Assembly: GCA_000002445.1 (NCBI GenBank)
Contig: CH464491.1
Span: 4,480,001-4,544,000 of the forward strand
Source of the DNA: Trypanosoma brucei
Taxonomy: Eukaryota
Direction: 5' to 3'
Length of the DNA stretch: 64,000 nucleotides
Below are positions 20,103 through 61,700 of this stretch, in pieces; position 1 is the first letter of the stretch, and every line of letters starts with the position of its first letter. A program made the position numbers and the translations under genes. A model generated the notes under the pieces. The model saw only the letters and a list, made by a program, of their open reading frames with translations, searched no databases and was not told the origin of the DNA.

Positions 20103-20276
20103 ACAACGTGTCGCGATGGATGACTTGGCTTCCTATTTCGTTGAAGAACGCAGCAAAGTGCGATAAGTGGTATCAATTGCAGAATCATTTCATTGCCCAA
20201 TCTTTGAACGCAAACGGCGCATGGGAGAAGCTCTCTCGAGCCATCCCCGTGCATGCCACATTTCTCAGTGTCGAAT
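20103..20276 (+). rRNA. 5.8S rRNA
   Basis: aacgtgtcgcgatggatgacttggcttcctatttcgttgaagaacgcagcaaagtgcgataagtggtatcaattgcagaatcatt...ctttgaacgcaaacggcgcatgggagaagctc...ccccgtgcatgcca...cagtgtcgaa matches the kinetoplastid/T. brucei 5.8S from memory. Confidence 0.85.
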
Positions 20277-20870
20277 ATAAAAACATAACACACACCTATT
20301 TTGTGTTGTTCAACGCACGCACAAAATCCCGCCACCTCTTCTCCTCGTATGGTTCATATTCATGTTTGTGAGTGTGCACATATACGATATCTTTCAACTT
20401 TTTCTCCTCGCAAAATGGAGTATGTCGCGCATATACGTGTGTGTAGTGAGTGATATGGAAGAGAAATGGGAAAGGCATATATATATATATACGTATATAC
20501 ATAATATATATGTGTGTGGATTTGTGTGTTGAGCACATATAAGGAAAAAGGTCGTGTGTATATGCAGAGAGTCCGTGGCGGTTTAGACGTATGTATATAT
20601 ATCTATAATATATGCATATGTGTGTGTTCCGCTGTGGAGATTTTATATCATACGGAGAGTGTTCATATATATGTTTGTAGGCATGTATTTTGGCGCCCCG
20701 TATAGAGATTAAAAAAGAAGAGAAAAAGTATGCAAAAGAGGCGGCGGATAGTGTGTATGTGTGTATCACAGCAAGGAACTATATTTTGCAGCTTGAGTAT
20801 ATGCATATATGTACATTATGTGCTTGTGCTTCTTTCGTGTACGCTTCACTTTTTTATATTGCATTTTTCA
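20277..20870 (+). other. ITS2-like spacer (AT-rich, (TA)n/(TG)n tracts) between 5.8S and LSU-alpha.
   Basis: Position between recognisable 5.8S and LSU 5' end; low-complexity composition. Confidence 0.6.
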
Positions 20871-25300: not shown

Positions 25301-25458
25301 ACAGCTGCCGACCGTTATTTCACACGCAGATAAAGCCTGTGTGCGCTGATGACCCTGACGATGTCAAAAGAGAGGCTTCCGAAAAGTGGATTGCACGGCA
25401 TTTTGCACGGAGGGGGATAGGAGCCACCGCGGCGAGAGCACTACGAATTGTAGACTGA
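22324..25458 (+). pseudogene. ingi ORF fragment 1: 2A-like peptide, AP-endonuclease and reverse-transcriptase domains.
   Basis: 1044-aa ORF with the motifs above. A full ingi ORF (~1650 aa) is interrupted here by frame changes at ~25460 and ~26540-26670. Confidence 0.8.
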
Positions 25459-25465
25459 TGGATCC

Positions 25466-26533
25466 GTGTCCCTCGGTGAGAAGTCCGGGGCAGCTGCCCT
25501 GCTCTATAGAAACAACACGCTGATTTGTGCACCCAAAACCGAAGCAGGGGAACTCTCATGCAGTTACAGAGCGGAATGCGTAGCATTAGAGATAGGACTG
25601 CAACGGCTGCTGAAATGGCTTCCGGCATACAGAAGCACACCGAGCAGGTTGTCCATCTTCTCTGACTCGCTGTCAATGTTAACAGCCCTGCAGGCAGGTC
25701 CACTAGCCGTAACGGACCCAATTCTGAGACGACTATGGAGGCTTCTGCTTCAAGTTCAGAGAAGGAAGGTGCGTATCCGACTGCAATTTGTGTTTGGCCA
25801 TTGTGGCGTGAAACGGAATGAGGTTTGTGATGAAATGGCCAAAAAGGCTGCAGATTTACCACAGTTGCGAGACACATGGATCCCCAACATCATTGCTTAT
25901 GCGAAGCGAGTGCTTAGGTCGGAAGAAGTCCATGAGAACACTCATAGGTTTGGTGTCACGGGCAACCACTTTCCAACAAAACATAAAGAAGAACTAACGA
26001 GGGAAGAAGAAACGGCACTGGCACGCTTTCGGGTTGGGTCTTCAAGACACTATGGATGGATGTTGCGAAAGATCAACCCGAGTGTGCCTCCACAGTGCCG
26101 ATGGTGTAACCCGCAACATGCAGCGATAGGACCAACAATACAAACAGCCCCAACTGTTGCGACACGCATTCTTCATAAAACCTCCGAACCGACCAAATGT
26201 ACGGAATGTGATGCCACATACCAATGCCACTCAAGTGCTGTAACGCATATGGTAAACAAACACGGCTTTGTGCGAGCTGATGCACTCCGGAGGATCAAAT
26301 ACGGCGATGCAACACCTGCAGTGGACATCCCCCCGGAGCCCCCTCCAGTGGTGGCGATCGTTCCTTTACCATCGAGCACACGAGTCCCGATGAGACCGCA
26401 GGTGCTTCATTGTACCCTCTGTGCCTCCAAATTCGCAGTGCCAGGCCGACTATTACACCACCTTAGAACAATACATGGCATAGGCAGCGGTAGTTGCCGC
26501 GTGAAAAGGGGGCGAGAGAACGAGGACTCATAG
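25466..26533 (+). pseudogene. ingi ORF fragment 2: RNase H-like region plus C2H2 zinc fingers.
   Basis: 355-aa ORF. CTECDATYQCHSSAVTHMVNKHGF and LHCTLCASKFAVPGRLLHHLRTIHG are C2H2 fingers. Confidence 0.7.
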
Positions 26534-26671
26534 CAAGGAGATGGTAGAGCCCCAGCAGCGCCAGCCTCTCAGGATACACGGAAGCTGCCGTTTCAATGTG
26601 ACCTGTGCGAGGCGAGCTTCGGTACACGTTCTTCCCTGTCACTACACAAGAAATTCAAACATAAGAGCATA

Positions 26672-27421
26672 GTGACGGAGGACGGTACCGTGGTGTTGGT
26701 GCAATTCCCTCGTAAGCGTGCCCGTGAGGGAAACGTTGACGTCCCGGGGAAGGGCGAGGTGCAGTGCGGTGTGTGCCAAAAAGTGCTCAGTTGCAGGGAC
26801 TCCCTCATCCGACACTGCAAGGCTTTTCACAAAGGTGAGGGAGTCGAGCTTAAATGCAGCAAAAGCACAAAATTTTGTGCCACTGATTCCCCGCATACAA
26901 ACACATCCATGTTGGTTTGCCAGACATGCGGAAGGCAGTGTGCTAGCAAAACTGGCCTCACCCTATATCAAAAGAAGATGCACGGTATGAAGGTAGAGCA
27001 CGCTGTTACCAGCCAACGCGGCGACTGCGAAGAAACGTCGCTGCACCTGATGAGCTGTCTTGGTTTGAAGGAGTTACGTGTCAGGTTTGCGGTAGAAGGT
27101 GTGTGTGTGCAGGATGTATGTTTTTCTAAAAGGCTGGCGCAGTTTCTTATTGCAGTTGAACGGGGCCGGCTGCAGGTGCTTAGCACAATGGTGTCGATGT
27201 TCTCAGCTTCGGCGCAGGTCGTGCTTTTGTCTTCTTGCGTTGTGTCCGCACATGTTTCTCCTCCAGGTGTCCCTGTGATCTGCTGTGAGCACAGTGCTTT
27301 ATTCAGCTTGGCCTTAATTTCCGTTATTAGGCTTTTGGCGTTAGTGTCCATAGGTTTGCTTTTTAGTGTCGTCACTAGGTCTGCCGTTTCCTCTGCAGTG
27401 CTGTTGACTACCAACTTTTGA
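26672..27421 (+). pseudogene. ingi ORF fragment 3: C-terminal C2H2 fingers.
   Basis: CGVCQKVLSCRDSLIRHCKAFH and CQTCGRQCASKTGLTLYQKKMH. The overlapping ORF 26593-26820(-) and the alternative frames are not coding. Confidence 0.65.
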
Positions 27422-28335
27422 AGTCCCGTCAGCTCGGTGTTTGTTGGGGGTTTTTGTTTCTTGTTACATTAGCTGGTTGGGTCTTTGACTTGTTTCCGTG
27501 GCTGTAACCAGTTTGGCCACTGTGCTTGCCAGCCGACACCGGCTGTCTGAGAACAATACTTTTCTTTGCGAGCTTCCCACCCGTTTTTCCCTCTGGAGTG
27601 CCGAAAATCTCTTTCCACTTCTGGGAAGCCAAAGACATGTTCAGTTTGACGAGTTGGTCGAATTCAGTGGGCACGTCCGGTGCCTTATACGTTTGCAATT
27701 TCATCCTTTCCGCTACGTCCCAGTCCGGACACAAAGCATAAAACGGTACTAGTGCGTCTCCTACGGCTCAGTTTCCATGTCTGATTGCAGTCGAGACTAA
27801 CATAATTACAGCTTTAACAATGAATTGCATTTTGTTCCGCGGCCACTGGTGAAAATCACCCGGTGGTGCTAAAAAATGACTAAACCTTTAGATTAATATT
27901 AACATCTTAAAGACTGTAAATATTTATTGTAACACAACAGTTAAACTGCTTTTGCTGAATATTTCTTGTGCATTTCGCTACCAAACCGTTGCCTGAAATT
28001 CGAAAGTTGGTTACATTTAAAAAATCTAATTTTCTGCCATTAATCGCATATATTTGAATATTCCAGTGCTCTTTTCTTGTAAATCTCTTTACTTTCAACT
28101 CTCTATGCAAGGTAAACGTTTTAAAAATCAATTTAACTTTATCTTCTCAAGAAATAGTCTGTCCTGGTAAATGAATAAACGAAGCCTTTACAGTCACCCA
28201 ACTATTGGGAATAGTAAAAAATATCTCCTCATAATTTAATCCAATCATTCCTCTCCTCAAAACAAATCTCTATCCAACAGCTTCTTCCAACACAGCACTA
28301 CATATTAGCAACGGTTTGTAAATACTCTGCTCTGA

Positions 28336-28830
28336 CTACCATTCACCACTTCCCTTTAGTAACTCTCCAAATGCATATTCAAACCTTTTAAATGCCCAAA
28401 CTCTTGCGATTATATTTCCACTACTAAGATAAGGTTTTCCACTTGGAGTTGATTTCAGTAAATGAGGTAACTCTTTATTCTCTTCTTTCCTGTCAGCCAC
28501 ATTAAAAAACCAAAAACATCTCTGCACATGCTCCTTGTGAACATCTTCTTCACTAAACTTATCTTCATTTTCCGCCGTATTTTCTATAAAATATTCCACC
28601 GAGTTCTCATATTTATTTCCATCACGAGCGCTACCTATAACGTCATACCCATCAACTTATATTACAATATCCTCATAACTTGCATTCTGTCTTTCCAAAA
28701 ACTCCATAACCCATCTAGGTCTTTTAACATGGCTATATAAACCTCCCATCGCAATTGTAATAATTTCAACATGGCTTAGTTTTGCACTCAATATTAGTCT
28801 GCACCATCCTTGAGTTGCATGAGTTTACAC
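28336..28830 (-). pseudogene. Glycosyltransferase-like (possibly ESAG3-related) pseudogene, copy 1.
   Basis: Fragments ...GGLYSHVKRPRWVMEFLERQNASYEDIVI*VDGYDVIGSARDG... and MEYFIENTAENEDKFSEEDVHKEHVQRCFWFFNVADRKEENKELPHLLKSTPSGKPYLSSGNIIARVWAFKRFEYAFGELLKGSGEW. It contains a DxD-like hLDrSDViv/vDkCDVii motif. The assignment to ESAG3 (nucleotide-diphospho-sugar transferase fold) is from memory and uncertain. There are internal stops. Confidence 0.4.
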
Positions 28831-29904
28831 TAAAAATACAAACACTCTGGGTTTCTTAGTGTAATTCACTGACACTTTGTTTATGTTATTTATTTTCTCA
28901 CTTTCAAAAGATACTGTACTTAAATACACAATGTAATAACAGCGGTAGTAGTAAATTTCTCAATATACAAAACTTTATTGCCTAATATACCTTTATAATT
29001 TTATTCTGTTATTAGAAAAAATGTAGAAAACTCAAGAAAGATAAGCCAGATGTACTACTAAGCTGTTTAGTTAAGAAATAGTTTTATATACATAGGTATC
29101 GACTTGATATTGTTATGATGTATCTGCTGCTACATGTTTGCTTAGTGTGTGCAGCTTCTCTTTGAGCGTGCATCTACAGTCTTTTGTTTTAGAAGTCAGT
29201 TTTAGCAACAGCTGGTGCAGAGCACGCTAGAGTAATTCTACTTCTTTATTGCATTCTTTACATTTCACCTCTACACATAGTTATGTTGATGGAAGTAGCT
29301 GATTGCACTGATTAGTTCAGATATACTAGAAATTTTACCAGTTGCGTGTGCTAGCTATTCCAATTACACGGTTTCCATCATAAGACTCCCATCAGCGTAG
29401 CGTTTAAAGCTGCTGCTACTGCAATCATCTCTGAAAAGAATGTATCCATTATCAGTATAATACCGCAAATTTGTGGGTTATCCTCTTTATCATCAAGTAT
29501 CATTTTGTTTTTCGCCGTGCACTCGCATATATTTTTACTTCACTCCGTACTTTCTTTAATTTCTTTTCGTCTTCTGTTTCTTTTCCTATCGGTAATGATA
29601 ACGTAGCAACTCCATTTAGACTCTACACTGGACTGTTTCGCGCCTTCGTTTCCTCTTTAGTTAGCTCGATGTGTGTATAATACAAATTTTCATAGTTGCA
29701 GAAAAAGCTACACATATTACAGCTACATTTTTTTCTTCCTTCCCTTGACTTTCCTTCATCAATATTTTTCCTTCCCCTCGTCGTTCTATCTCATATTCAT
29801 TTACTCCCATTGCATCATTTTTCATATAGTACCCTTAGAATTAGTTTAAGTGCTTCTATTTCTGGTCTCCAGATGGTCCATACAACTTCTCTTATTATAA
29901 TATT

Positions 29905-30015: not shown

Positions 30016-30819
30016 TAATTATTTTTATTAATTAATTATTATTATTAATTATTATTATTATTATTATTATTATATTATTATTATTATTATTATTATTTAT
30101 TANNNNNNNNNNNNNNNNNNNNNNNNNNNNNNNNNNNNNNNNNNNNNNNNNNNNNNNNNNNNNNNNNNNNNNNNNNNNNNNNNNNNNNNNNNNNNNNNNN
30201 NNAGGTATTATTATTATAATTAGTATAAGTATTATTAATATTATTATTATTAGTATTAGTATTAGTATTAGTATTAATAATATTATTAGTATTAGTATTA
30301 TTATTAGTATTAGTATTAGTATTATTAATAGTATTATTATTAATTATTATTAGTATTAGTAGTAGTATTATATTTATTATTATTATTAGTATTAGTATTA
30401 GTATTAGTATTATTATTAGTATTAGTATATTTATTATTATTAGTATTAGTATTATTATTATTAGTATTAGTATTAGTATTAGTATTAGTATTATTATTAT
30501 TATTAGTATTAGTATTATTATTATTATTAGTATTAGTATTATTATTAGTATTAGTATTAGTATTATTACTAGTATTATTATTATTATTATTAGTATTAGT
30601 ATTAGTATTAGTATTAGTATTATTATTATTATTAGTATTAGTATTATTATTAGTATTAGTATTAGTATTATTACTAGTATTATTATTATTATTATTAGTA
30701 TTAGTATTAGTATTAGTATTATTATTATTATTATTATTACTATTAGTATTATTATTATTATTAGTATTAGTATTAGTATTAGTATTAGTATTAGTATTAG
30801 TATTATTATTATTAGTATT

Positions 30820-35354: not shown

Positions 35355-36892
35355 CTTAAAATTATACAAACTTACCGACGCACAAATCGAAGCGAATTTC
35401 TTATTAACAAGAAAGTTGAAATATTTGGAAGAATTATTTCCCATTTGCAGCCGTGATCCTTTCCAGAATCACTTTCTGTTTTCGCTGCACATTTCTTCTT
35501 TTTCTTTTCTTCCCCTTTGCCCTTCTCCACCGCCACGCAATTATCACCTTTTAATTCGTATCCTTCTGTTGTTTTGCATTTGTCCTCGTATGTTATTGCT
35601 TGACACTTGTTGACTTCCGCTGAAGGCGTGATTGTGGGCTTGCTTGTTGATTCCGGCATTGCCGTGTTGATTTTTCCTTCCAAGTAGGCAATAATTTTGG
35701 CAGCCTTTGGCCCGGATGCAAGGTCTGTCAGCTTGCCGTTTATTTTCTCATCTCCTATTTGAAAAGAGTGCTCTTTTGTTTTCGTCTATTCAACGACATC
35801 CTTGGAAAAGGCTTCCACCGTGGGGCCTAGCGCGGCTTTTATCAGGGCTTTGGTTTTGCCTTTATCATTGTCATCTTTTTCAAATGGTTGGTTAAGCTGG
35901 AGTGCTATTAGCGTAGCGATCTCGGAATCAGCTTCTATGTCGCTCTAGCTTCCCTGAAGTATTGACGCGGTGTCTAGTTTTGGCGCGTTCAACGCATTAC
36001 AAACAGCCCGCGCCACTTTTGCGGTTCCGAGTGAATCCCAGGGCAAGCTGTCCGTTTTTGCTTTGCATCCACCGCGTTTAGTTAGTGTGTCAAATATGTC
36101 AATATCCGCTGTCGCTTCTAACAGTGCGCCGGCGCTGCCTAGTTCTCCTAAGTATCTTCCATTTTTGGCGCTGCTGTCGGTGTCGACGAACCCTGGATGG
36201 CCTGAGAGTGCCCTGTGACCTTCTACTGGTGTGCCTTTTACAGCTGCTTTCAGTGTTATACTTGCTTGTTTCAATATTGCGTCGTTTATCATTTTTAGTT
36301 TGTAAATTTCATCCGCCTTGACGTCTGCTTGTTTGACTTTGTGGCCTGCCGTTAGATCGTCAATGTTGCAGTTGGCTCCTGTTTCGACTGTTGTCACGGC
36401 CGCTTTGTTCGTTGTCACTACTGTTGTTGTCGCTGGTGAAGCTTCGCTTGTTTCTTGCGTTGCCGTTCCTGGCTGTAGAGTTTTGATCCGTAGTTTTCGG
36501 CACATGATTAGCCTGTGCACCCTTGTCTTTAGTACCGTTGCCGCTGCTTCCAACTTTTGGTCGTAGTTTGGTAATTGTGTTAGTGCAGCCATTGCATTCG
36601 CTTCTTCGATGCTTGCTAGAGTACGCAGCCCGGCTGCTCTTTCTCTTCCGCCTTCCGCAGTGGCCAGTCTTAGTGCTGCGGCGGTTGCTGACAGCGTCAG
36701 AGCTACTGAAGTTCCTGATGTCGCTTGCTGTCTTGACATAGAATCCAGCGCTAGATCGTACCGGATTTCCCCACAGCTCTCTGTTACTTGTTGGCCGGCA
36801 TCGTGTACGCCATCTGTTGTTGCTGCGGTCGCGCTCCGGTGGAGAACCAATGCAGTCAGTAAAGTTACGTAGAGGGAAATGGATATGAACAT
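35355..36892 (-). pseudogene. VSG: VSG pseudogene: A-type N-terminal domain intact as a 315-aa ORF, C-terminal domain frameshifted.
   Basis: 35945-36892: MFISISLYVTLLTALVLHRSATAATT... with a long N-terminal domain. 35372-35683: CTD with CKWE. The GPI signal SSFLVNKKFASICASV is in a shifted frame. Confidence 0.8.
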
Positions 36893-49150: not shown

Positions 49151-49545
49151 AGCTGACACTCAAGTATTACAACTCCTTTGTTTCTAAAAATTAACTTCTA
49201 CACAAGCATTACCACAAAACACTACATAATAAAAATTCCATTTCCAGCTACCAAACGCTTATGTTTTAAGTTCCCCCAAATTGTTACCGTAAATTGTTTT
49301 CTTTCCAAGTATTCATACCAACTAATATTTTTAACAATCAATTTAACTTTATCTTCTCAAGAAATAGTCTGTCCTGGTAAATGAATAAACGAAGCCTTTA
49401 CAGTCACCCAACTATTGGGAATAGTAAAAAATATCTCCTCATAATTTAATCCAATCATTCCTCTCCTCAAAACAAATCTCTATCCAACAGCTTCTTCCAA
49501 CACAGCACTACATATTAGCAACGGTTTGTAAATACTCTGCTCTGA

Positions 49546-50050
49546 CTACCATTCACCACTTCCCTTTAGTAACTCTCCAAATGCATATTCAAACCTTTTA
49601 AATGCCCAAACTCTTGCGATTATATTTCCACCACTAAGATAAGGTTTTCCACTTGGAGTTGATTTCAGTAAATGAGGTAACTCTTTATTCTCTTCTTTCC
49701 TGTCAGCCACATTAAAAAACCAAAAACATCTCTGCACATGCTCCTTATGTTCTGAGTTCATAAGCAAATCCAACTGAGAAACATAACACTCTGATGTTGT
49801 CATGAATATAATAGGGGAAATATGCTTCTCTTTTACTATATCTTCTTAACTAAACTTATCTTCCATCCCTGCAGTATTTTGAATAAAATACTTCACAGCA
49901 TTTCCATATTTTTCACGGTTGGATATTATAACATCACACTTATCAACAGTTATTACAATATCCTCATAACTTGCATTCTGTCTTTCCAAAAACTCCATAA
50001 CCCATCTAGGTCTTTTAACATGGCTATATAAACCTCCCATCGCAATTGTA
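49546..50050 (-). pseudogene. Glycosyltransferase-like (ESAG3-like?) pseudogene, copy 3.
   Basis: MGGLYSHVKRPRWVMEFLERQNASYEDIVITVDKCDVIISNREKYGNAVKYFIQNTAGMEDKFS plus MTTSECYVSQLDLLMNSEHKEHVQRCFWFFNVADRKEENKELPHLLKSTPSGKPYLSGGNIIARVWAFKRFEYAFGELLKGSGEW. The stretch 49322-49745 is identical to 28122-28545. Confidence 0.4.
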
Positions 50051-50284
50051 ATAATTTCAACATGGCTTAGTTTCGCAGTAAATATGAGCCTATACTATCC
50101 TTGAGTTGCATGAGTTTTAACTACAACAACGAACACTCTTGGTTTCTTAGTATAATTCACTGACACTTTGTTTATGTTTTTCATCATCTTGATGAGATGC
50201 AGCGCTTAAACCACACTAATAGTAAAACAACAGTATAAGTGTATAAATATCATATTTCCTATTCTAATCTACTTTAAAACATTG

Positions 50285-50330
50285 AGTCTGTTGTGAGTTT
50301 GTGTATACGAATATTATAGCAATAGTGTTT
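50285..50330 (+). repeat. 70-bp-repeat core (plus orientation) upstream of the VSG at 51190.
   Basis: ctgttgtgagtttgtgtatacgaatattatagcaatag. Confidence 0.65.
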
Positions 50331-51189
50331 GTGATGAAAACCGAATTGGGGAAAAGTAGAAGCATTAAAAATAATGGTAAGGGTGATATAAGAGTAAGTG
50401 ATGGAGGAAAAGAAAAGAAATGTGCTAAGGATATTATTAAAGCAAAAGCATAAAGATAAAGAGGGATGGAGTGAGATTGTATACAAGCAGTTTCGAACAG
50501 TAACTTAATGACAGTGGTTCTTAATACAAGGAGATGAAGGAAGGAATATTGAAAGGAAGACAAAGTTTGGTTTACAAGCCAAATTTTGTCACTAGGTGAT
50601 ACGCAACAACACAGCGCAGAAAAAGGAAAGTGATACATTAGAATGAATCACTGATTATTCCTCAAATTTCACGTTGAAATGAATATAAGCCACCGCATAT
50701 ATGATTTTATTCACTTAAAATGTTAATATTCTGGAGAAATAATGTTTAGCTTCACTGAGGTAAGTGTCTGACGATGAAGAAACGTTGATTTTCACTTGAA
50801 GATAACCAGTAATAGAGAAAATGTATGATACATAGGAACCCAAAAGGTCGGTTAGAATTTTGCAACCAGCTCGACCTCACAAAACAGCCTGCGGCAAGGA
50901 GCCAATCAATAATAGGTCGAATTTCACGAAGTGAGGGCAGAAGCAGCATGCGTAAACCTAGGTAATGGACCTAAAAAACAAAGAGTGCAACTGCAAAAAC
51001 TGAGCTGGTGCCAGAGAAGACAACAAACATCTAACAACTAACATAAGAAGAGGTGGCGCACTAGTCATGTCCACTCTGAATGTGTCAACCACTGCATACT
51101 TAGGCATAAGTCACCTTTTCTAAGCCAAACACAGCTCCTTGTTTACTTTCCAACTCCAGAAATAACACAGCAAGGAGCACTGGAAAAAT

Positions 51190-52560
51190 ATGACACTATC
51201 ATGGATACTACTAGCGACTGTAGTGGCGATGCTACCAATCTGGACTATAACAGTGGAGACGGCTGCAGGACAAGGTCTAAAAGACACCTCTTGTAGCCTC
51301 TCTGTCAACTACCCAAACAAAGACTTGGACACTATAAGCAAAAAAGCGACACTCAAACTGAAAACAGCTGTACTTGACACCGACGCCATGATAAAGCTGA
51401 AACTTCAAACGGAAATTTATCTAGCCAAGCTGCCCAACAAACAAGACACGCGCCCATGGGCCGCTCTTGAAGCGGCCCTTGAAAGGGAAATAGGAGGCGT
51501 CTTAACAGCACTTCCAGGTACAGCAAAAGCAGCAATCAAAGCAACACAGCGCGCAGCTCACCTGCAAGAACGCTTAGCCGAATTTCTGTCAATCTTCGCA
51601 AACGCAGCCAAATCCGGCGTGCCGCAACATTGCTGCCTCTCAACAGGTTCAAACCATCAAACAGCAGTTGAAGGTATCACAGGCCTAAAAGGCTGCGTCC
51701 ACAAACCTGGAAATAGCAGCGCCGTTCCGGAAGCGGTGACGACAATCACGGCAGCAACGTACAAAGACATACCGACTCAAACAGCTGACGGGAGAGATGC
51801 GATAGCTGCGGCGTCCAACCTAAACTGCAGCATAGCACTGGGGACAGAAGATGGATCTCTGGGAGCCGGCATACCTAAAAACGGAAACAACAGCAAGAGC
51901 CACGAGCCTTTCACTGCAGCTTATCTCAAGGTAGCCGCCAATGCAATAACAGCAGTTAACCCCAACAACAGCAGCAAGCTACGCTAAGCCAAGTGAATTC
52001 ATGGTAATTTAGGTAGCAGAACTCAAAAAGCAGTGAGTTTACTGCTTCAATCCAAAGCCGAACACGACGACCACACAGAAAAGTTGGTAAAAGACAAATA
52101 AAAAAGAGGAACGAAATTCGAAACAGATTTCTGGGGCAAGGTGCTAAACGAGCAGGTAACAAAGCAAACGGCAGACGGACAAAGCAACCGCATGCTAGGA
52201 CAGATGAACGACATCACTGAGCTGCAACTTACTCTAACGTATTATGAGAGCCTTAACGGCGCGGAACATAAAGATAATTAAGGAGCTGCAGGAAGAAAGC
52301 AAAGCAAATAAAGAAAGTTCAGCAACCACAAAGATTAGTGAAACAGATGAAACTTGCGCGACCAAAGGAGTAGATAATGTGAAAACCCCTGCAAGTTGGT
52401 TGACGAAGAAGGTGGAAAAAAGAAGTGCAAATTGGATAAAGAAGCGGCAAAACAAGCAGCCCAGGCAAGAGAGAAAGATAGTAAAACCGGACCCACAAAC
52501 ACCACAGGAAGCAATTCTTTTGTCATCAACAAGGCCCCTCTTTTGCTTGTATTTTTGATT
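51190..52560 (+). pseudogene. VSG: VSG pseudogene: N-terminal domain ORF of 265 aa ending in a premature stop, CTD in another frame.
   Basis: MTLSWILLATVVAMLPIWTITVETAAGQ... The CTD 52244-52558 has the canonical end NTTGSNSFVINKAPLLLVFLIL in a shifted frame. The 3'UTR 16-mer agatatattttaacac is at ~52641-52656. Confidence 0.85.
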
Positions 52561-52867
52561 CTAGCATAAAACTTTTAAAAATTATTGGTAAAGGATTTTT
52601 TGCTAAATTTTAATAAATATATTAAATTAGTTTTTTTTGAGGGAATTAGATATATTTTAACACTTTTTGATGAAAATGTGAAAATTAGTGAGAATTTTCG
52701 AAACTTGAAAATTATGAAAATTTTAGTAAAATGTGTATGACAGTGTCCCAGGTGTGTGAAGGTAAAGAAATATAAGGAATGAAGAATGAATACTATTCTC
52801 ATTGGATTATTTTGTTTATTTTTTGTGTTTTATGGATGTTTGTTAGGCTTTAATAACGATAACTACA

Positions 52868-52905
52868 AGATAGTATTGTGAGTGTGTATATACTAATATT
52901 ATGGG
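52868..52905 (+). repeat. 70-bp-repeat core.
   Basis: gtattgtgagtgtgtatatactaatattatgggaac. Confidence 0.65.
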
Positions 52906-54044
52906 AACTATGGTGCTGAAGACAGATGGACGGGCTAAGTGCAAGCATCTATATCAGTTACAGAGCGCAATGTAAGTAAGTAATTGAGTAACAAAGAATG
53001 GAGAAGAGAAAAGGATAAAAATGTTAGAAAAGAAAACAAAAAGTGTTAGAAGGATTTGATGCACTGTTTAGTAAAAGTCTATAGGACGATATCATCATAC
53101 GGGGAAATGGTTAAGAACAATGAGACAAGAAGTCTACTAACCGATATAAATAGAAATACTTCGGAATTCACAGCAGTAATAGGTACAAAAGCCGCTGTCG
53201 AAAGAATAGGTAAAAGAAGTAACTAAATGATAAGAAACCGCGGATGGACGCGCAAAGAAGAATTTTTTTAGTACAGAACGTTTCAAATGACAATCAACCT
53301 CTCTCTTACTGTCTCAATAAAAAACTGTTGAACCCATTTAGAAAGCGAGCAATTCATAAACGTATACACACTAACACGGTATTGATGGAACTTGTCAAAC
53401 ACATTCACAGTGAAAAATGTATTTGGGACCGCAAATGAGCAATGAGAGACGAAAGAGACAGACATTTACATGATAACAACAAAGATAAGTTGAAGCTGTG
53501 AGTATGGCAGAAACGCTGGCTTAATATTGTTATTGAATAAGTACACACACAACAGAAGTTAACCTCTAATAGAAGCACAAAGATACAATAATAAATATAA
53601 AATTTTTTGATGGAGATTAGACTTCTATAAATTATATCTTTAAGTAGATAATTCTTTTACTTGACTGAGTGATTTTTAAGCAACAATAGCTGACTGGAAA
53701 ACGGCACTCATACAAAACTTTTGTACGCCCCCTCAGACATGAAGAAATATTTATAGCCTTGTATTTTTTAGCAGTTTGTTACTTTCCACTTTCACTGGTA
53801 TTATAACGCGACACATCAAATGATTCATTTAAAAATAACACTCATTATTATTTTTGGCAGGAAAACCTAAGTAAAAAAGCAAACATTGGATAGAGAATTA
53901 AGGGATCTGTGTTTGATTTTCAAACTTATTACTAAGTCCGCTGCTTGGCCCAAAATGCATACCCAAACCGGCATACAGACTGCAAGGACATACTTTTATT
54001 TAAGAACCACATTTTAACGGTAAGGACCAAAGAAGCTCTTTCAT

Positions 54045-55610
54045 GGATGTAAGGAAAAGCAGGATCTTAACGCTCTTAGTAACGCTCTTAGTAACGCTGG
54101 CGCTTTTAAATGACGCCCTCAAAGCCTTAGAAAATGTAGCGGAAGACAGCAACCAGCCAGAACGACAGGCTTTGTGCTCTATAATAGAGCTCGGTGGCGA
54201 AAGATCAAAACTTCTAGACTAGGCACCAGGAGGAACTTCAGACTTGGATGAGTTGCTATCAATCAACATGAAGCTCGCGGAAGACACAAGGCTGCAACAC
54301 TTCAGGGACGCAACCGACCCGACTAAGCCACGAGACACAACCAAACAAGCGCTACCCCCGAATACGAATTGGAATGAACGCTGGCCGGACTGGCAAAAAG
54401 CCGCTAACCCTCTGTTGGAAAAAGGCGAAATCACGGAAAAACTTAAACACTTTACTAGACAAGTTAAATGATAAACAAAAACATGCCGTCCGACTCCACA
54501 TATTCAAACTAGCGGAAGAAGCGTCCAGGGAGGCCAAGCAAGCAGAACAAGAACATCCAGCAGGCGACTTCCTAACAGAAGACGACCTACACAAAGAGCT
54601 AAACAAAGCAATTTACGGTGAAGAAACAGAACCTGCTGACGATTTCAGCAATTGTAAAACGTTTGGCGACAGCCCTGCCAGTGACAGACAAGCGAACTGC
54701 GGCAGTGCCAGCGTAGCAGGCAAAACCAACACGGCATTCGCAGCATTCGTCTGCGTATGCGCCAAAGACAACACCAACGGTGGAAACGAGGGAAAAGCCT
54801 GTGCAGGTTCTGTAACTCTGAGCAGCACCTGGAATCCGGGCACCAACAATAACCCATCACCCGCAACGTTAGCAGAATTAAGAAAGCTATGCAATATAAA
54901 GGCTGAAACACAGCTAACAGTAGCAGATCTTCAAAGAAGGATCGCAGATGTAACTGGATTACTCCGCTACACAACCCAAGCAACGCACCTCGGCACTTTC
55001 CTGACTACAGCCTGCAGCGGCGCCGCAGCCAGAGGAGTGTGTGTCACATACAAGGGCATCCACGGCCACGCTGCGGACCCTAAGAAGGCAATAAACTGGC
55101 TAGCTGAACTAGATGCCACGGCGAAAAAAATACACAAACACGAACAGGCGGTCTAAGCTAGGAATAGGCTAGCTCAGCTACTAGCAGTAAAAAAGCAGCT
55201 TGCTACGGACGTAGACTACCTAACAAGAACAATAGAAACACCGCAGCGACGCCCCGGACTGCAACAGCAAGCGGAAGAACAAAAAAACAAAAACCAAGCA
55301 AGAGCACAATCAATCTGCGACGAACACAAAAAAAGTAAAACTAAATGCGAAAATACAGGTAAATGCAAATGAAAAGGAGAGGATGAGACCAAAGGGGAAT
55401 GCAAATCTAAAGAGGGGAAGGGCAGAAAAGCTAAGGAACAGAGGGAGCTGTGGGAACAGTCGCTAGAGTAAAATGCAAAGTAAAAGTGGAGAAAGATTGC
55501 AAATATCTGGATTTTCAACAGTAAGGAACAGAGTGAAAATATTCCAGTTTTCTCGTCAATAAAAAATTGGCTGTTATGGCTGCTACTTTTATGAGTTTAG
55601 TCGAATTCTA
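54045..55610 (+). pseudogene. VSG: VSG pseudogene: in-frame stop near the N-terminus, frameshifted CTD.
   Basis: The ATG at ~54045 runs into a tag stop at ~54218. ORF 54374-55156 is a B-type N-terminal domain (...AFAAFVCVCAKDNTNGG...). The GPI signal SFLVNKKLAVMAATFMSLVEF is in a shifted frame at ~55545-55610. It is ~75% identical at protein level to 59505-60917. Confidence 0.8.
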
Positions 55611-55859
55611 GGATCCAAAGGATATTTGCTTAGTATAATGAAAAATAAGAAATTTCCCTGGTGACGCTGGCCACATCATCGTAATGTCAGTGTCTAGTAT
55701 TTCGTCCAGAAGGAATTCAATAGCCCGCATTATACACGATCCAAAAGGGTTGAGGCTGGAAACAGGTTTTCAGCCACCAGAGAAGAAGCAAGAAGCAACA
55801 TCGGCACTCTGTGGTAAATGAGGTTTTACGAATTCTTCCCTGCACGTGCAAACGTGCCT

Positions 55860-56780
55860 CGATTGGGATAAATAGGCTTCCACTACTACTTAGCAGAGAT
55901 GTTGAGTGTAATCCTGCTCCCCAGATACATGGAACCCAATATAACACTGTGGAGGTACCTCAGAAAAACGACTTGCCTTAGAGAAGAAGCTCCACGAGGA
56001 TATGGTAGTCTTCTGTTTATTGCGGGAGACACACTTGGCAGCAGAAGAGTACTGCATATTAAAAGCAGCGGATACCAACATATGTGGATGTCACGTTCTC
56101 TACATGGTGGTATGGTATCAATTCTAGTCAAATATGGGATGGGAGTGGAACTGGGTCCAAAGCTGGAGGGTCTGCCGGAAAGAGTCTCGGTAACACTGAT
56201 GTTTTTAGCTGATTTAATGTTAACTATAAAATCATTTTACTTCCAACGGAAGAAAAATGTCACTACCTACGCTTGAGTGTCTTGAGAGATCGACTTTACC
56301 AATATTAATAAGATCTGATACAAAAACTCATCATGATTTACGGGATCCGTTATGCTCAAATGATACTGTAAGAGAAGTTTTGTGGACTAGTGTCTACGAA
56401 AAGATATCAAAATTGCAAATGATGGCACTACGAGGAAAAATATGCCTCTCACAGAAACCAGATCATCTCATGATGTTATAACGTACAGAGACTGCGAAGT
56501 CACAAGATGGAAGGCAAGCCTCATCCCAGAGAGTGACAACTAATGGAAAACGTTTGAGATATGTATTGGCATTGGTGTAGAAGTGATCGCCATTACAAAG
56601 CCAATAAGGGTGTTGTATGCTTGGAGTATAGCAAACTAGTTGGAGTTTAGAAAAGTGTGTGGTGTAATAATGGTGAAAAAATTAAGGAAGTCTGGAAAGA
56701 ACGTGGATGCTATGAATGAGGCAGTGACAAAAGTAATTCGCACAGCAGCAAAGGAAACAATACAAAAATGTAAGGGAGTA
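55860..56780 (+). mobile_element. Degenerate ingi/L1Tc-related retroelement fragment (AP-endonuclease region), truncated by the assembly gap.
   Basis: ORF 55899-56276: ...LLFIAGDTLGSRRVLHIKSSGYQHMWMSRSLHGGMVSILVKYG... parallels ingi ...LLSETRMTPGVAACFSVAGYQHHGIARNCKGGGVSILVRE... at 22.7 kb (an ETH-like motif, GYQH and GG(V/M)SILV). Confidence 0.5.
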
Positions 56781-56880
56781 NNNNNNNNNNNNNNNNNNNN
56801 NNNNNNNNNNNNNNNNNNNNNNNNNNNNNNNNNNNNNNNNNNNNNNNNNNNNNNNNNNNNNNNNNNNNNNNNNNNNNNNN
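56781..56880. other. Assembly gap (100 N).
   Basis: n run. Confidence 1.
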
Positions 56881-58025
56881 TATCTAGCCAAGCTGCCCAA
56901 CAAACAAGACACGCGCCCATGGGCCGCTCTTGAAGCGGCCCTTGAAAGGGAAATAGGAGGCGTCTTAACAGCACTTCCAGGTACAGCAAAAGCAGCAATC
57001 AAAGCAACACAGCGCGCAGCTCACCTGCAAGAACGCTTAGCCGAATTTCTGTCAATCTTCGCAAACGCAGCCAAATCCGGCGTGCCGCAACATTGCTGCC
57101 TCTCAACAGGTTCAAACCATCAAACAGCAGTTGAAGGTATCACAGGCCTAAAAGGCTGCGTCCACAAACCTGGAAATAGCAGCGCCGTTCCGGAAGCGGT
57201 GACGACAATCACGGCAGCAACGTACAAAGACATACCGACTCAAACAGCTGACGGGAGAGATGCGATAGCTGCGGCGTCCAACCTAAACTGCAGCATAGCA
57301 CTGGGGACAGAAGATGGATCTCTGGGAGCCGGCATACCTAAAAACGGAAACAACAGCAAGAGCCACGAGCCTTTCACTGCAGCTTATCTCAAGGTAGCCG
57401 CCAATGCAATAACAGCAGTTAACCCCAACAACAGCATCAAGCTACGCTAAGCCAAGTGAATTCATGGTAATTTAGGTAGCAGAACTCAAAAAGCAGTGAG
57501 TTTACTGCTTCAATCCAAAGCCGAACACGACGACCACACAGAAAAGTTGGTAAAAGACAAATAAAAAAGAGGAACGAAATTCGAAACAGATTTCTGGGGC
57601 AAGGTGCTAAACGAGCAGGTAACAAAGCAAACGGCAGACGGACAAAGCAACCGCATGCTAGGACAGATGAACGACATCACTGAGCTGCAACTTACTCTAA
57701 CGTATTATGAGAGCCTTAACGGCGCGGAACATAAAGATAATTAAGGAGCTGCAGGAAGAAAGCAAAGCAAATAAAGAAAGTTCAGCAACCACAAAGATTA
57801 GTGAAACAGATGAAACTTGCGCGACCAAAGGAGTAGATAATGTGAAAACCCCTGCAAGTTGGTTGACGAAGAAGGTGGAAAAAAGAAGTGCAAATTGGAT
57901 AAAGAAGCGGCAAAACAAGCAGCCCAGGCAAGAGAGAAAGATAGTAAAACCGGACCCACAAACACCACAGGAAGCAATTCTTTTGTCATCAACAAGGCCC
58001 CTCTTTTGCTTGTATTTTTGATTCT
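56881..58025 (+). pseudogene. VSG: Partial VSG pseudogene copy: a duplicate of 51417-52560, starting inside the N-terminal domain at the gap.
   Basis: 56881 onward is identical to 51417 onward. ORFs 57082-57450 and 57707-58021 have the same proteins as the copy at 51-52 kb. The 16-mer is at ~58104-58119. Confidence 0.85.
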
Positions 58026-58334
58026 AGCATAAAACTTTTAAAAATTATTGGTAAAGGATTTTTTGCTAAATTTTAATAAATATATTAAATTAGTTTTTTT
58101 TGAGGGAATTAGATATATTTTAACACTTTTTGATGAAAATGTGAAAATTAGTGAGAATTTTCGAAACTTGAAAATTATGAAAATTTTAGTAAAATGTGTA
58201 TGACAGTGTCCCAGGTGTGTGAAGGTAAAGAAATATAAGGAATGAAGAATGAATACTATTCTCATTGGATTATTTTGTTTATTTTTTGTGTTTTATGGAT
58301 GTTTGTTAGGCTTTAATAACGATAACTACAAGAT

Positions 58335-58372
58335 AGTATTGTGAGTGTGTATATACTAATATTATGGGAACT
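58335..58372 (+). repeat. 70-bp-repeat core.
   Basis: gtattgtgagtgtgtatatactaatattatgggaac, a duplicate of 52868. Confidence 0.65.
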
Positions 58373-59504
58373 ATGGTGCTGAAGACAGATGGACGGGCTA
58401 AGTGCAAGCATCTATATCAGTTACAGAGCGCAATGTAAGTAAGTAATTGAGTAACAAAGAATGGAGAAGAGAAAAGGATAAAAAATGTTAGAAAAGAAAA
58501 CAAAAAGTGTTAGAAGGATTTGATGCACTGTTTAGTAAAAGTCTATAGGACGATATCATCATACGGGGAAATGGTTAAGAACAATGAGACAAGAAGTCTA
58601 CTAATCGATATAAATAGAAATACTTCGGAATTCACAGCAGTAATAGGTACAAAAGCCGCTGTCGAAAGAACAGGTAAAAGAAGTAACTAAATGATAAGAA
58701 ACCGCGGATGGACGCGCAAAGAAGAATTTTTTTAGTACAGAAAGATTCAAATGACAATCCGCCTCACTCTCACTAAATCAATAAAAAACTGTTGAACCCA
58801 TTTAAAGAGCGAGCAATTCACAGACGTATACACACTAATACGGTATTGATAGAGCGTATCAAACACTTCACAGCGAAAAGTGCATTTGGGACTGAAAATG
58901 AACAACGTGAGACGAAAGAGACAGATATTTACATGATAAGGACAAAAATAAGTTGAAGCTGTGAGTATGGTAGAAACGCTGGCTTAATATTGTTATTTAA
59001 TAAGTACACACACAACAGAAGTTAACCTCTAATATAAGCACAAAATACAATAATAAATATAAAAATTTTTGACAGAGATTAGACTTCTATAAATTATATC
59101 TTTAAGTAGATAATTCTTTTACTTGACTGAGTGATTTTTAAGCAACAATAACTGACTGGCAAACAGCACTCATACAAAACTTTTGTACGTCCACTCAGAC
59201 ATGAAAAAATATTTCTAGCTTTATTTTATTTAGAAGTTTGTTACTTTCCACTTTCACTGGTATTATAACGCGACACATCAAATGATTCATTTAAAAATAA
59301 CACTCGTTATTATTTTTGGCAGGAAAATCTAAGTAAAAAAGCAAAAATGGGACAGAGAATTAAGGGATCTGTGTTTTATTTACAAACTTATTACTAAGTC
59401 CGGTGCTTGGCCCAAAATGTATACCCAAACCGGCATACAGACTGCAAGGACATACTTTTATTTGAGAACCACATTTTAACGGTAAGGACCAAAGAAGCTC
59501 TTTC

Positions 59505-61080
59505 ATGGCGGCAGCCAAAGGAAGGATCTTAACTCTCTTAGCGACGCTGCCGCTTTTAAATGGAGCCCTTACAGCCTTAGCAGCTGTAGCGGAAGACAGC
59601 AACCAGCCAGAACGAAGGGCTTTGTGCGCTATAATAGAGCTCGGTGGCGAAAGATCAAAGCTTCTAGACCAGGCACCAGGAGGAACTTCAGACTTGGATG
59701 AGTTGCTATCGTTAAACATGACGCTCGCGGAAGACACATGGCTGCAACACTTCAGGGACGCAACAGACCCGACTAAGCCACGAGACACAACCAAACAAGC
59801 GCTACCCCCGAATACGAATTGGGATAAGCGCTGGGCAGACTGGAAGAAAGCCGCCGACCCTCTGTTGGACAAAGGAAAGATCACGGAAAAACTAAAACAC
59901 TTTAAGCTAGACAAGTTAAACGATGAACAAAAACATGCCGTCCGGCAGAACGTAGCTAAACTGGCGGAAGAACCCTACACGGAGGCGAAGCAAGAGGAGG
60001 AGGACCATCCGACAGCCGATATCCTAACAGAAGAAGACCTGCACAAAGAACTAAACACAGCAATTTACGGAACCCAAACGGAGCCTGCTGACACTTTCGA
60101 TAATTATAAAACGTTCGGCGACACCGCGGGCGCAACCAGGGAAGCAAACTGCGGAACTAACACGCAAGCGAGCAAGGCAGAAACGGCGTTCGCCGCATTC
60201 GTCTGCGTATGTGCCAAAGACAACACACACGCCGGCGACGAAGCAAAAGCCTGTGCAGCTTCTGTAGATCTGACCAACAACTGGGATCCGGGCACCAACA
60301 ATAACCCATTGCCAGCCACGTTAGCACAATTAAGGAAGCTGTGCAATATGAAGGCTGAAACGACGCTAACAGCATCAGAGCTGCAAAGAAGGATCGCGGA
60401 AATCACAGGATTACTCCGTCACACAACACAAGCAACGCACCTCGGAACTTTCCTAACTACAGACTGCAGCGGAGCCGCAGCCAACGGGATGTGTGTCACA
60501 TACAAGGGCATACACAACAACGCAGCAGACCCCAAGAAAGCAATAACCTGGATAGCTCAACTAGATGCCACGGCGAAAAAAATACACAAACACGAACAGG
60601 CGGTCCAAACTAGGAAGAGGCTAGCTCAGCAACTAGCAGTAAAAAAGAAGCTTGCTACGGACGTAGACCACCTAACAAGAACAATAGAAACGCCGCAGCG
60701 ACGGTCCGAACTGCAACAGCAAGCGGAAGAACAAAAAACCAAAAACCAAGCAATAGCACAATCAACCTGCGACCCACAAAGAAAAGTAAAAATAAATGCG
60801 AAAATACAGGTAAATGCAAATGGAAAGGTGAGGATGAGAGCAAACGAAAGTGCGAAGTTAAAGATGGTGGAGAGCAGAACAGCTAAGGAACAGATAGAGA
60901 TGCAGGAACAACTGTAAACTGTAGAAAGTATAAGGGCTAGGAGAGTTGCAAAAACGCGCCTGGAGAAAAAAGCCATGTAAAATGCCGTCTGTGGCTGGAT
61001 TGATTTCATTGAAAGACAAGGCAAAGTAAAACCGGCATGCATGGATTCCAGTTTTCTCTCCAATCAGAAATTGGCTCTGA
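59505..61080 (+). pseudogene. VSG: VSG with a complete B-type N-terminal domain in one 470-aa ORF. The CTD/GPI signal is reachable only by frameshift, so this is a near-intact pseudogene.
   Basis: MAAAKGRILTLLATLPLLNGALTALAAVAEDSNQPERRALCAIIELGG...AFAAFVCVCAKDNTHAGDEAKACAASVDL.... CKWKGEDESKRKCEVKDGG and the GPI-signal-like ...LALMAAAFVDSYYFCIL are in other frames. The 16-mer-like tgatatattttaatat is at ~61176. Confidence 0.8.
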
Positions 61081-61269
61081 TGGCCGCTGCTTTTGTAGAT
61101 TCGTATTATTTTTGCATTCTAAAATTTTAATTATTATTGCTCAAGTTTATGAAACTTGCTGAAATTTGATATATTTTAATATTTTTGTATATCCTTTAAA
61201 ATATTTGAGAATCTAAAATGGTTGTATGACTTTAGCCCATAGGTGGATATAACAATGGTTATAGAGCAT

Positions 61270-61700
<431 letters not shown>

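Follow-up and report, generated by a model that had tools for sequence, protein, structure and literature searches.

Two versions of a two-cassette VSG stretch on either side of an assembly gap in a silent array of Trypanosoma brucei TREU927

Results

The VSG1 cassette and its two copies

The window analysed here, a 64,000-nucleotide stretch of contig CH464491.1 from T. brucei brucei TREU927, runs from the chromosome core into a silent VSG array. An adenylate cyclase ORF in the window is XP_829760 of this strain. The array starts at about 28 kb, and the fork between the two homologues must lie at that point. The first VSG of interest, VSG1, is present twice, as copy A and copy B, with the following elements.

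50289..50325, forward strand: 70-bp-repeat core upstream of VSG1 (91.9% match by BLASTN to the core beside a (TAA)76 tract at 61645-61681)
51190..52569, forward strand: VSG1 copy A, an A-type VSG pseudogene (PF00913, E = 5.7e-22; translations)
52648..52663, forward strand: VSG 3'UTR 16-mer variant AGATATATTTTAACAC, copy A (1 mismatch)
52851..52902, forward strand: single degenerate 70-bp-repeat core between VSG1 and VSG2A (82.7% match to 61622-61673 by BLASTN)
56881..58032, forward strand: VSG1 copy B, which the contig start cuts off at codon 77 (residues 77-266 of the VSG1 ORF match by tblastn at 99.5%)
58111..58126, forward strand: 16-mer variant AGATATATTTTAACAC, copy B (1 mismatch)
58314..58365, forward strand: 70-bp-repeat core, copy B, within the near-identical block and in register with 52851-52902

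Copy A has a 265-aa open N-terminal part followed by frameshifts, a degenerate C-terminal domain and a GPI signal. The conserved VSG 3'UTR 16-mer has the consensus TGATATATTTTAACAC. Matches to it with no more than two mismatches occurred six times in the window, against 0.11 expected by chance. The 70-bp cores at 50289-50325 and 52851-52902 match the core beside the (TAA)76 tract (61622-61681) at 83-92% in comparisons made within the window. VSG1 thus has the N-terminal domain, the 3'UTR 16-mer and the upstream 70-bp repeat of a silent-array VSG cassette. Its match to the C-terminal domain PF10659 was weak (E = 0.014); matches to this family scored 15.7-19.3 bits, under the gathering score of 21.4, because the fragments are short and frameshifted. 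Conceptual translations contain Cys-rich C-terminal motifs and GPI-signal-like tails, for example one ending in SNSFVINKAPLLLVFLILA and a stop.

VSG2A, VSG2B and the sequences downstream

Each VSG1 copy is followed by a B-type VSG.

54043..55611, forward strand: VSG2A, a B-type pseudogene interrupted by several frameshifts and stop codons (translations; PF13206, E = 5.7e-40 for the ORF at 54374-55156; tblastn with P0006)
55655..56780, forward strand: 5' portion of a DIRE-like, degenerate non-LTR retroelement of the ingi clade, which is inserted about 45 bp past the VSG2A stop codon and continues into the gap
56781..56880: 100-N assembly gap and contig boundary
59505..61130, forward strand: VSG2B, a B-type VSG (PF13206, E = 2.5e-61; translation)
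61167..61182, forward strand: 16-mer-like element in the VSG2B 3'UTR (2 mismatches)
61330..61681, forward strand: 70-bp-type repeat downstream of VSG2B that contains a pure (TAA)76 tract and has no counterpart in copy A (TRF)

VSG2B has an intact N-terminal ORF of 470 aa (59505-60917), identical to T. equiperdum SCU69153.1, and its C-terminal domain and GPI signal are frameshifted. A search of the window allowing up to two mismatches returned no 16-mer in the VSG2A 3'UTR, because the retroelement replaces that 3'UTR. Downstream of VSG2, copy A therefore has a retroelement whereas copy B has a 16-mer and a 70-bp repeat.

By tblastx/tblastn the retroelement aligns collinearly with the endonuclease region at the N-terminal end of the ingi ORF at 26-48% aa identity, with many stops (30-48% and E = 2.7e-25 in the tblastx comparison), and its 5' motif matches the ingi 5' end at 22375 at 33 of 45 positions. 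A Pfam search of a 73-aa fragment of the element gave no match. The assembly includes just the first 1.1 kb of it ahead of the gap, and the 5' motif and collinear ORF identify it as a degenerate ingi-clade element.

All of the elements named in a preliminary description of this DNA (VSG N-terminal domain, C-terminal domain, 3'UTR 16-mer and 70-bp core) are present. VSG2A is also where it had been placed, except that the gene starts at 54043 and not at 54045.

Identity between the copies falls abruptly

The preliminary description had proposed that sequence from 56881 onward repeats that from 51417 onward, and BLASTN bore this out: 51418-55458 aligns with 56881-60910 as one collinear match of 92.9% identity over 4,052 bp. 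The offset between copies is 5463 and becomes 5464 past a 1-bp indel at 53016. An additional 84% match joins the GPI-signal ends (55541-55590 and 61045-61094), and BLASTN found no homology between copies A and B past about 55611/61130. The alignment is divided as follows.

51418..53278, forward strand: near-identical block, copy A, with 4 differences from copy B (BLASTN, per-100-bp identity, zone statistics)
53279..54042, forward strand: region upstream of VSG2A, where the diverged zone starts at about 93% identity to copy B (change-point and zone statistics)
56881..58742, forward strand: near-identical block, copy B, beginning at the first contig base and 100% identical to the T. equiperdum contig described below
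58743..59504, forward strand: region upstream of VSG2B, diverged zone (zone statistics)

Divergence is not uniform. Per-100-bp identity and a maximum-likelihood change point at A53279/B58743 (4 of 1,862 columns differing on the left, 60 of 764 on the right; 2*dLL = 124) agree with the sharp drop that had been noted. The four differences on the left are 51974 G/T, the indel at 53016, 53141 C/T and 53207 T/C (57437, 58480, 58605 and 58671 in copy B), spread over 1.3 kb. The first zone (56881-58670) is 99.89% identical, with 3 differences in 1,790 bp. Identity is 92.9% in the second zone, upstream of VSG2, and in the third, the VSG2 coding sequence, it is 84.9% at the nucleotide level and 75.6% at the amino acid level (351/464 codons), close to the 75% first estimated. 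The near-identity of the proximal part therefore stood, and its length, put at about 1.9 kb, is 1.79-1.86 kb. This block spans VSG1, its 3'UTR, the next 70-bp core and 377 bp more.

Divergence thus changes abruptly inside continuous homology, as in a gene-conversion or recombination tract, with ~93% homology flanking the tract on the right and the contig start hiding its left side. The step at 53279/58743 is best read as the endpoint of a recent homologous recombination between paralogous cassettes, resolved in the ~93% identical region upstream of the two VSG2 paralogues, within older paralogous homology. The preliminary description had called the event a recent gene conversion; a recent recombination endpoint agrees with the data, and conversion and crossover both fit it. 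Two versions of the two-cassette stretch (VSG1 then VSG2) are present in the TREU927 genome, with a recently coalesced block in common.

VSG2A and VSG2B come from a VSG subfamily that has multiple members and patchy similarity. They could therefore be independent paralogues, and the older duplication of a two-gene unit that had been proposed is not needed. A related T. brucei VSG set holds both the VSG2A ORF (P0008, exact) and a variant of VSG2B (P0005), so the two co-occur in another genome.

Copy B begins at a contig edge

Copy B starts at the first base after the gap at 56781-56880, which does hide its upstream boundary, as had been pointed out. The contig before the gap ends inside a dispersed degenerate retroelement, and the first difference between the copies lies 556 bp into the copy-B contig. 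No assembled sequence joins the retroelement to an upstream flank of copy B; the 100-N gap lies between them. No defined repeat unit with both boundaries visible is present: its left edge is the contig start at 56881, and homology ends at the VSG2 3' end. With copy B starting exactly at the gap, tandem order is a possibility rather than an established fact.

Another gap in the window makes contig ends in this assembly suspect: self-BLAST shows that the sequence just after 9920-10019 repeats 795 bp from nearby perfectly, in inverted orientation. Together with the position of copy B at a gap edge, this would suit a pure assembly artefact in which reads of copy A supplied the first 1.8 kb of the contig after the gap and no second near-identical sequence exists. 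Another strain largely refutes such an artefact, and we consider it very improbable. The T. equiperdum OVI assembly was made de novo from Illumina 2x150 reads with Velvet k33 and SSAKE (PMC5278650). Over 4,551 bp, contig CZPT02001161.1 of this short-read assembly has 0 mismatches to window positions 56881-61431; where A and B differ, it has the B state in all four cases. Because this independent assembly contains the junction between the shared block and B-specific sequence base for base, the junction is not an assembly chimera. The near-identical segment is likewise very unlikely to be a pure artefact of assembly around the gap, which had been raised as a concern.

A single copy in T. equiperdum

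Upstream of the copy-B match, the OVI contig continues into the flank of copy A.

49329..49746, forward strand: R418 block, the part of the VSG1 flank that lies furthest upstream (self-BLAST); the T. equiperdum contig crosses it into the VSG1 flank

Contig positions 1655-3026 equal window positions 50046-51417 with 0 mismatches in 1,372 bp, and 1023-1644 equal 49329-49950 with 1 mismatch. The contig runs unbroken from the copy A flank into the copy-B-specific part, and T. equiperdum is identical to copy B over 5.9 kb. Further upstream it passes into sequence adjoining the core-proximal ingi at 27.1-28.5 kb. R418 has a second copy at 28119-28536 (99.5% identity, self-BLAST) and is probably the leftmost portion of the sequence common to copies A and B.

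Since copy B in T. equiperdum runs on into the copy A flank, the alignment suggests that the shared block probably extends over 3.9 kb or more and is present once in T. equiperdum. The true left boundary of copy B is then probably at least 2.1 kb further upstream. In T. equiperdum, the only other assembly of this locus, one copy and no second was seen; with both versions present, a fork at 53279 would be expected in a k33 de Bruijn assembly. The upstream end of the OVI contig calls for caution. It is a Velvet scaffold with a 10-N join, and at the 418-bp repeat its path is shortened and its SNPs form a hybrid pattern; a second T. equiperdum contig extrapolates to end just within that repeat. 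For these reasons the OVI contig may be partly chimeric upstream of 49.7 kb.

Placement of copy B

We infer the physical position of copy B from the contig edges, the T. equiperdum sequence and the haplotype context. The reading that we prefer, with a probability of roughly 50%, is that copy B belongs to the other chromosome homologue, or is at any rate not adjacent to copy A, and does not lie downstream of VSG2A on the same molecule. The left end of copy B at the gap would be an assembly limit and not a biological boundary, and its true upstream sequence would be that of copy A (the VSG1 5' end, the flank and the 70-bp core, back to about 49329). Because the two would share this sequence, copy-B upstream reads would have been absorbed into the preceding contig, and the copy-B contig could have started only inside the shared block. 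Copy B would have been laid in series after a contig that it partly overlaps because the TREU927 reference collapses two haplotypes with differing VSG arrays.

Published data on TREU927 are consistent with this placement on the other homologue. The strain has an estimated heterozygosity of 2.2 variants/kb, and its reference collapses both haplotypes into one mosaic (PMC8445201). The shared block has a difference density of 4 in 1,862 bp (2.1/kb), a value from four events, which are too few to tell 'allelic' from 'recently converted'. VSG arrays differ so strongly between homologues as to be effectively haploid (PMC1934917). Read depth has no power to separate a tandem copy from one on the other homologue: each arrangement would double the depth over 49.3-51.4 kb and leave it single over the A- and B-specific parts.

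The preliminary description had instead placed both copies in tandem on one chromosome. Under this possible, if less probable, alternative, an old duplication of the VSG1-VSG2 unit diverged, a recent conversion or unequal crossover homogenised the VSG1 cassette up to 53279, and the gap hides the rest of the retroelement and the copy-B flank. A high-identity block followed by older homology does have the look of a conversion tract, and the co-occurrence of P0008 and P0005 in another genome fits. Ectopic conversion in the archive duplicates VSGs singly or in blocks, within and between arrays, according to PMC3467770 (citing Marcello and Barry 2007), so a true tandem repeat is entirely plausible. 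Scaffold order also puts copy B after copy A. However, that adjacency rests on a 100-N join that read pairs from the shared block would give under either model. Copy B also opens at a contig edge with no assembled junction to its upstream flank, the preceding contig ends in a dispersed element, and the patchy subfamily makes an older tandem duplication unnecessary. The relative that matches copy B has the A flank and the B downstream sequence in single copy, which counts against a tandem; the same structure is the exact product of unequal crossover between tandem copies. T. equiperdum is another strain, and its single copy could be ancestral or could be such a product.

Copy B could also be an ectopic paralogue from a different array, at another chromosome end or on a distant part of chromosome 11, made by duplicative conversion of the VSG1 cassette and mis-scaffolded beside copy A owing to the shared block. 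Ectopic conversion between subtelomeres is common (PMC3467770), and mates in the shared 99.8% identical block would wrongly link the contigs. This origin is unlikely, because the sequence upstream of copy B in T. equiperdum is continuous with the 49.3-51.4 kb flank and then with the 27.1-28.5 kb ingi-side sequence, which ties copy B to this locus unless that part of the OVI contig is chimeric.

Discussion

False ('heterotype') duplications arise when a haplotig is laid in series beside a gap in a collapsed diploid assembly. The arrangement here has this form: the duplicate adjoins a gap, opens at a contig edge, matches an inner part of the preceding contig with a density of differences that is near the allelic estimate, on four events, and then diverges. 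The TREU927 reference is, moreover, a collapsed mosaic of two haplotypes (PMC8445201). Unlike ordinary allelic variation, the versions past the shared block are about 7-20% diverged paralogues and then unrelated, so the cause would be hemizygous arrays rather than simple heterozygosity. Hemizygous, haplotype-specific subtelomeres are described for T. brucei (Callejas et al. 2006; Berriman et al. 2005, both cited by PMC1934917), and those of Lister 427 have been phased (PMC8445201). As expected at a fork between homologues, the window crosses the transition from core to array, and the two versions share proximal sequence before continuing into different VSGs.

The silent VSG archive evolves by ectopic gene conversion and duplication of cassettes, singly or in blocks (Marcello and Barry 2007, via PMC3467770). 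The locus resembles that process in its silent array pseudogenes, which are preceded by 70-bp repeats and carry a 3'UTR 16-mer, and in having one cassette near-identical at two places, an older paralogue as neighbour and an abrupt recombination endpoint. It differs in that the right endpoint is not the canonical cassette limit, lying 377 bp past the next 70-bp core in ~93% homology upstream of VSG2, and in that the left endpoint is hidden from view. Duplicative transposition into a telomeric expression site likewise uses homologous recombination on VSG-flanking homology to copy a whole VSG and its 3'UTR. Here, in contrast, the structure involves neither a telomere nor an expression site, promoter or ESAG set, each of the four genes is a pseudogene in an array, and the boundaries are neither 70-bp repeats (on the 5' side) nor the VSG 3' end. 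The structure belongs to the germline archive and is not an antigenic switch event.

Whether copy B lies on the other homologue or in tandem, the phenomenon is already known VSG-archive biology. It is doubtful that the tandem layout is both real and recent, with TREU927 gaining a second VSG1 cassette in the same array after its split from the T. equiperdum OVI lineage (or with that cassette segregating since) and with endpoints outside the canonical limits of the cassette at the 70-bp repeats and 3'UTR. If it were, the locus would be a datable example of silent-array growth by generic flank homology rather than by 70-bp repeats.

Structure of the two VSG copies

The initial 28 kb of the window is core-like, with a GC content of about 50%, and includes an adenylate cyclase ORF (11738-15499, 1,253 aa) identical to XP_829760/EAN80648 of the 5.26-Mb TREU927 record. 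A silent VSG array begins at ~28 kb and continues onward through the window, with minus-strand cassettes up to ~47 kb and plus-strand ones from ~50 kb.

Features of the window
9920-10019, 30103-30202 and 56781-56880: three 100-N gaps
20105-20273: 5.8S rRNA
20892-22382: partial LSU rRNA fragment (initial ~1,445 model positions)
22375: 5' motif of a full-length ingi retrotransposon (ORFs 22324-27421; endonuclease, RT and RNase H matches)
28119-28536 and 49329-49746: 418-bp direct repeat, 99.5% identical, 2 SNPs
50289: 70-bp core upstream of VSG1
51190-52569: VSG1, copy A; A-type, PF00913
52648: 16-mer variant, copy A
52851-52902: single 70-bp core, copy A
54043-55611: VSG2A; B-type, PF13206; several frameshifts
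55655-56780: 5' 1.1 kb of a degenerate ingi-clade (DIRE-like) retroelement, continuing into the gap
56881: VSG1, copy B, starting right after the gap at codon 77
56881-58670: near-identical block, 3 differences in 1,790 bp
58111: 16-mer, copy B
58314: 70-bp core, copy B
59505-61130: VSG2B; open 470-aa N-terminal domain, C-terminal domain frameshifted
61167: 16-mer-like element after VSG2B
61409-61638: pure (TAA)76 tract in a 70-bp repeat after VSG2B

All four VSG genes of copies A and B are pseudogenes, as is usual for VSGs in arrays. VSG1 keeps an open N-terminal part of 265 aa; beyond it lie frameshifts, a C-terminal domain that has degenerated, and a GPI signal. The retroelement at 55655, whose 5' motif agrees with the ingi 5' end in 33/45 positions and which resembles the ingi endonuclease region collinearly at the protein level, is inserted ~45 bp past the VSG2A stop codon, replacing the normal 3'UTR and 16-mer. 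In the core-like part, the LSU rRNA fragment is truncated at the start of the full-length ingi, and no SSU rRNA match was found beside this stray rDNA fragment (20105-22382). A long (TAT)/(TATTAT) tract adjoins the gap at 30103-30202.

Identity between the copies falls in a step

A single collinear BLASTN match aligned copy A (51418-55458) with copy B (56881-60910) at 92.9% over 4,052 bp, with an offset of 5463. We scored identity per 100 bp and per zone along this alignment and found that it dropped from 99.89% in the near-identical block to 92.9% in the zone upstream of VSG2 and 84.9% in the VSG2 coding sequence (75.6% at the amino acid level, 351/464 codons). The maximum-likelihood change point lay at A53279/B58743, with 4/1,862 columns differing to its left (51974 G/T, a 1-bp indel at 53016, 53141 C/T and 53207 T/C) and 60/764 to its right (2*dLL = 124). 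The BLASTN match, the identity profile and the change-point fit thus bear out the repeat with a sharp identity step that the preliminary description had claimed. Homology between the copies stops at the VSG2 3' end, where only the GPI-signal segment aligns (84%). We looked for re-convergence in 61.7-64 kb and found no retroelement or VSG similarity there; the contig before the gap (contig A) ends earlier.

The junction is present in Trypanosoma equiperdum

The exact 470-aa VSG2B ORF had one match in other assemblies, on a 7,577-bp contig of T. equiperdum OVI (L001, CZPT02001161.1). Positions 3027-7577 of L001 equal window 56881-61431 with 0 mismatches in 4,551 bp, carrying the B state at 4/4 A/B differences, and the contig terminates 23 bp inside the (TAA)76 tract. 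Velvet (k = 33) and SSAKE built the OVI genome de novo from Illumina 2x150 reads, with TREU927 serving only for annotation transfer (PMC5278650). Because this independent assembly reproduces the junction between the block and B-specific sequence, the junction exists in nature. The same match rules out the contig after the gap (contig B) as a pure chimera; a pure assembly artefact is highly improbable.

The absence of mismatches in L001 is only moderately unusual, because a second OVI contig (L002, CZPT02000641.1) differs from TREU927 across 15.5 kb by some 20 substitutions, grouped in about 10 clusters, N-runs left out. These substitutions fall mostly in tight triplets (e.g. 35753/35781/35786, 37054/37060/37069 and 38687/38692/38697), possibly micro-conversions or contig-end errors.

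Upstream of the point matching 56881, L001 equals window 50046-51417 (0 mismatches in 1,372 bp), which is copy A's own upstream, comprising the VSG1 5' end and flank. Beyond a 10-N join it equals 49329-49950 with 1 mismatch. Its first part (1-1644) omits 21 kb, passing from core-proximal 27099-28118 via the 418-bp repeat to the 49.7-kb side, and within the repeat SNP 1 has the 28-kb state and SNP 2 the 49-kb state. A deletion, an insertion polymorphism or a haplotype difference might account for this skip, as might a short-read mis-join. L002 aligns collinearly with window 46979-31200, and therefore the 21-kb minus-strand block exists in OVI; its record start extrapolates to just within the 418-bp repeat. 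Past that repeat (28119-28891 vs 49329-50181), a 93-bp indel is followed by only 85% identity, a second identity step.

The gap probably reflects the repeat

Because L001 continues into the flank of copy A, the real upstream sequence of copy B is almost certainly the same as that of copy A, and the shared block probably spans at least about 3.9 kb (49329-53278) rather than 1.8 kb. The repeat probably also explains why contig B starts where it does, beyond any mere hiding of a boundary by the gap. Shotgun reads from the upstream part of copy B would have been inseparable from those of copy A and absorbed into contig A, leaving contig B to extend left only slightly past the leftmost A/B difference at 57437, which is 556 bp from the contig start. 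Dispersed retroelements are a standard cause of contig breaks, and the break of contig A falls inside the retroelement at 55655-56780.

A second suspicious gap-edge duplicate in the window is a 795-bp inverted repeat (10020-10814 vs 11114-11908, 100%), which opens at base 1 after the gap at 9920-10019 and resembles a contig end that is folded back or chimeric. The arm at 11114-11908 reaches into the adenylate cyclase ORF, taking in its initial 171 bp.

Copy B may lie on the other homologue

Only the order of the scaffold, with its 100-N gap, places copies A and B side by side. We put at about 0.5 the probability that the other homologue carries copy B, or that B is at least non-adjacent to copy A. 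OVI joins the flank of A to the tail of B unbroken; had that genome contained both versions, a k33 de Bruijn graph would be expected to branch at 53279. With only four differences in the block, A and B differ at 2.1/kb, which matches the published heterozygosity of TREU927, 2.2 variants/kb, and the TREU927 reference collapses both haplotypes into a single mosaic (PMC8445201). A Nanopore assembly is on record for another strain, Lister 427 (PMC11739655). VSG arrays are so unlike between homologues as to be effectively haploid (PMC1934917), and the array start, where homologues must part, falls within the window. However, T. equiperdum is a different strain, and L001 is a scaffold with a short cut via the 418-bp repeat and a hybrid SNP pattern. 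Since OVI has the 21-kb block, L001 may be a chimera in its upstream part; alternatively, this region may be heterozygous in OVI.

The OVI structure is also exactly what unequal crossover between true tandem copies would yield, and VSG block duplication is documented (PMC3467770); a true tandem repeat is possible, though less likely than a copy on the other homologue. That copy B is an ectopic copy placed here by mis-scaffolding is unlikely. Read depth alone is non-discriminating, as the tandem and other-homologue models predict the same pattern: doubled depth at ~49.3-51.4 kb and equal single depth at 53.3-56.8 kb and 58.7-61.4 kb. Mates of shared-block reads would link the two contigs wherever B sits, be it behind A, on the other homologue or at some further location.

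Recombination and mosaicism in the VSG2 subfamily

TREU927 holds two distinct sequences in which a common block, ~0.2% diverged, sharply meets paralogous sequence that is 7-20% diverged. A recent homologous recombination, by conversion or crossover, was probably resolved where the sequence upstream of the two VSG2 paralogues is ~93% identical. Situated 377 bp downstream of the 70-bp core, the breakpoint does not coincide with a canonical cassette boundary, the sole mildly unusual aspect of the locus. The preliminary description had read the pattern as a gene-conversion mosaic of an older tandem duplication; of this reading, which is partly supported, the recombination junction stands, whereas a tandem layout and an older duplication of the two-gene unit are both unproven.

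A homologue search with VSG2B matched five proteins, none tied to a genomic locus. P0005 (ARB50661.1), from another T. brucei, is identical to VSG2B (59505-60917) over residues 30-470, with the same premature end, and all 10 substitutions fall in the initial 29 residues; by sequence, the difference is a small 5' segmental replacement. The subfamily of VSG2A and VSG2B also includes the proteins P0006 and P0007 (81-83% identical to VSG2B). Similarity within it is patchy: P0006 is 100% identical to VSG2B at residues 1-30 and 61-90 and 60-66% identical in several central windows. Mosaic evolution in the VSG2 subfamily is evident from this patchiness and from the segmental replacement in P0005. The exact VSG2A ORF was found as a single GenBank protein with no contig, P0008, from the same GenBank set as P0005. 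Another protein of that set, P0011, is a 1-aa variant of ORF 35945-36892. The VSG1 ORF was not in the protein collection searched, where it had no homologues at E <= 1e-20.

Significance

Recombination among VSG cassettes is well described for this genome, so the kind of feature is already known. The A/B locus is an ordinary instance of how the silent VSG archive evolves through ectopic recombination, a process already documented in this same genome. Laying haplotypes in series is typical of collapsed diploid assemblies, and such an arrangement possibly overlies the locus. Unlike an expression-site switch event, it has no telomere, ESAG set or promoter, and its genes are all pseudogenes. The main value of the finding is for curation of the TREU927 reference: copy B is probably collapsed in part into the contig preceding the gap, and the post-gap copy may represent a second haplotype placed in series. 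This is relevant to VSG gene counts, archive duplication rates and read mapping in this region. Mosaic evolution is itself the expected behaviour of VSG archives.
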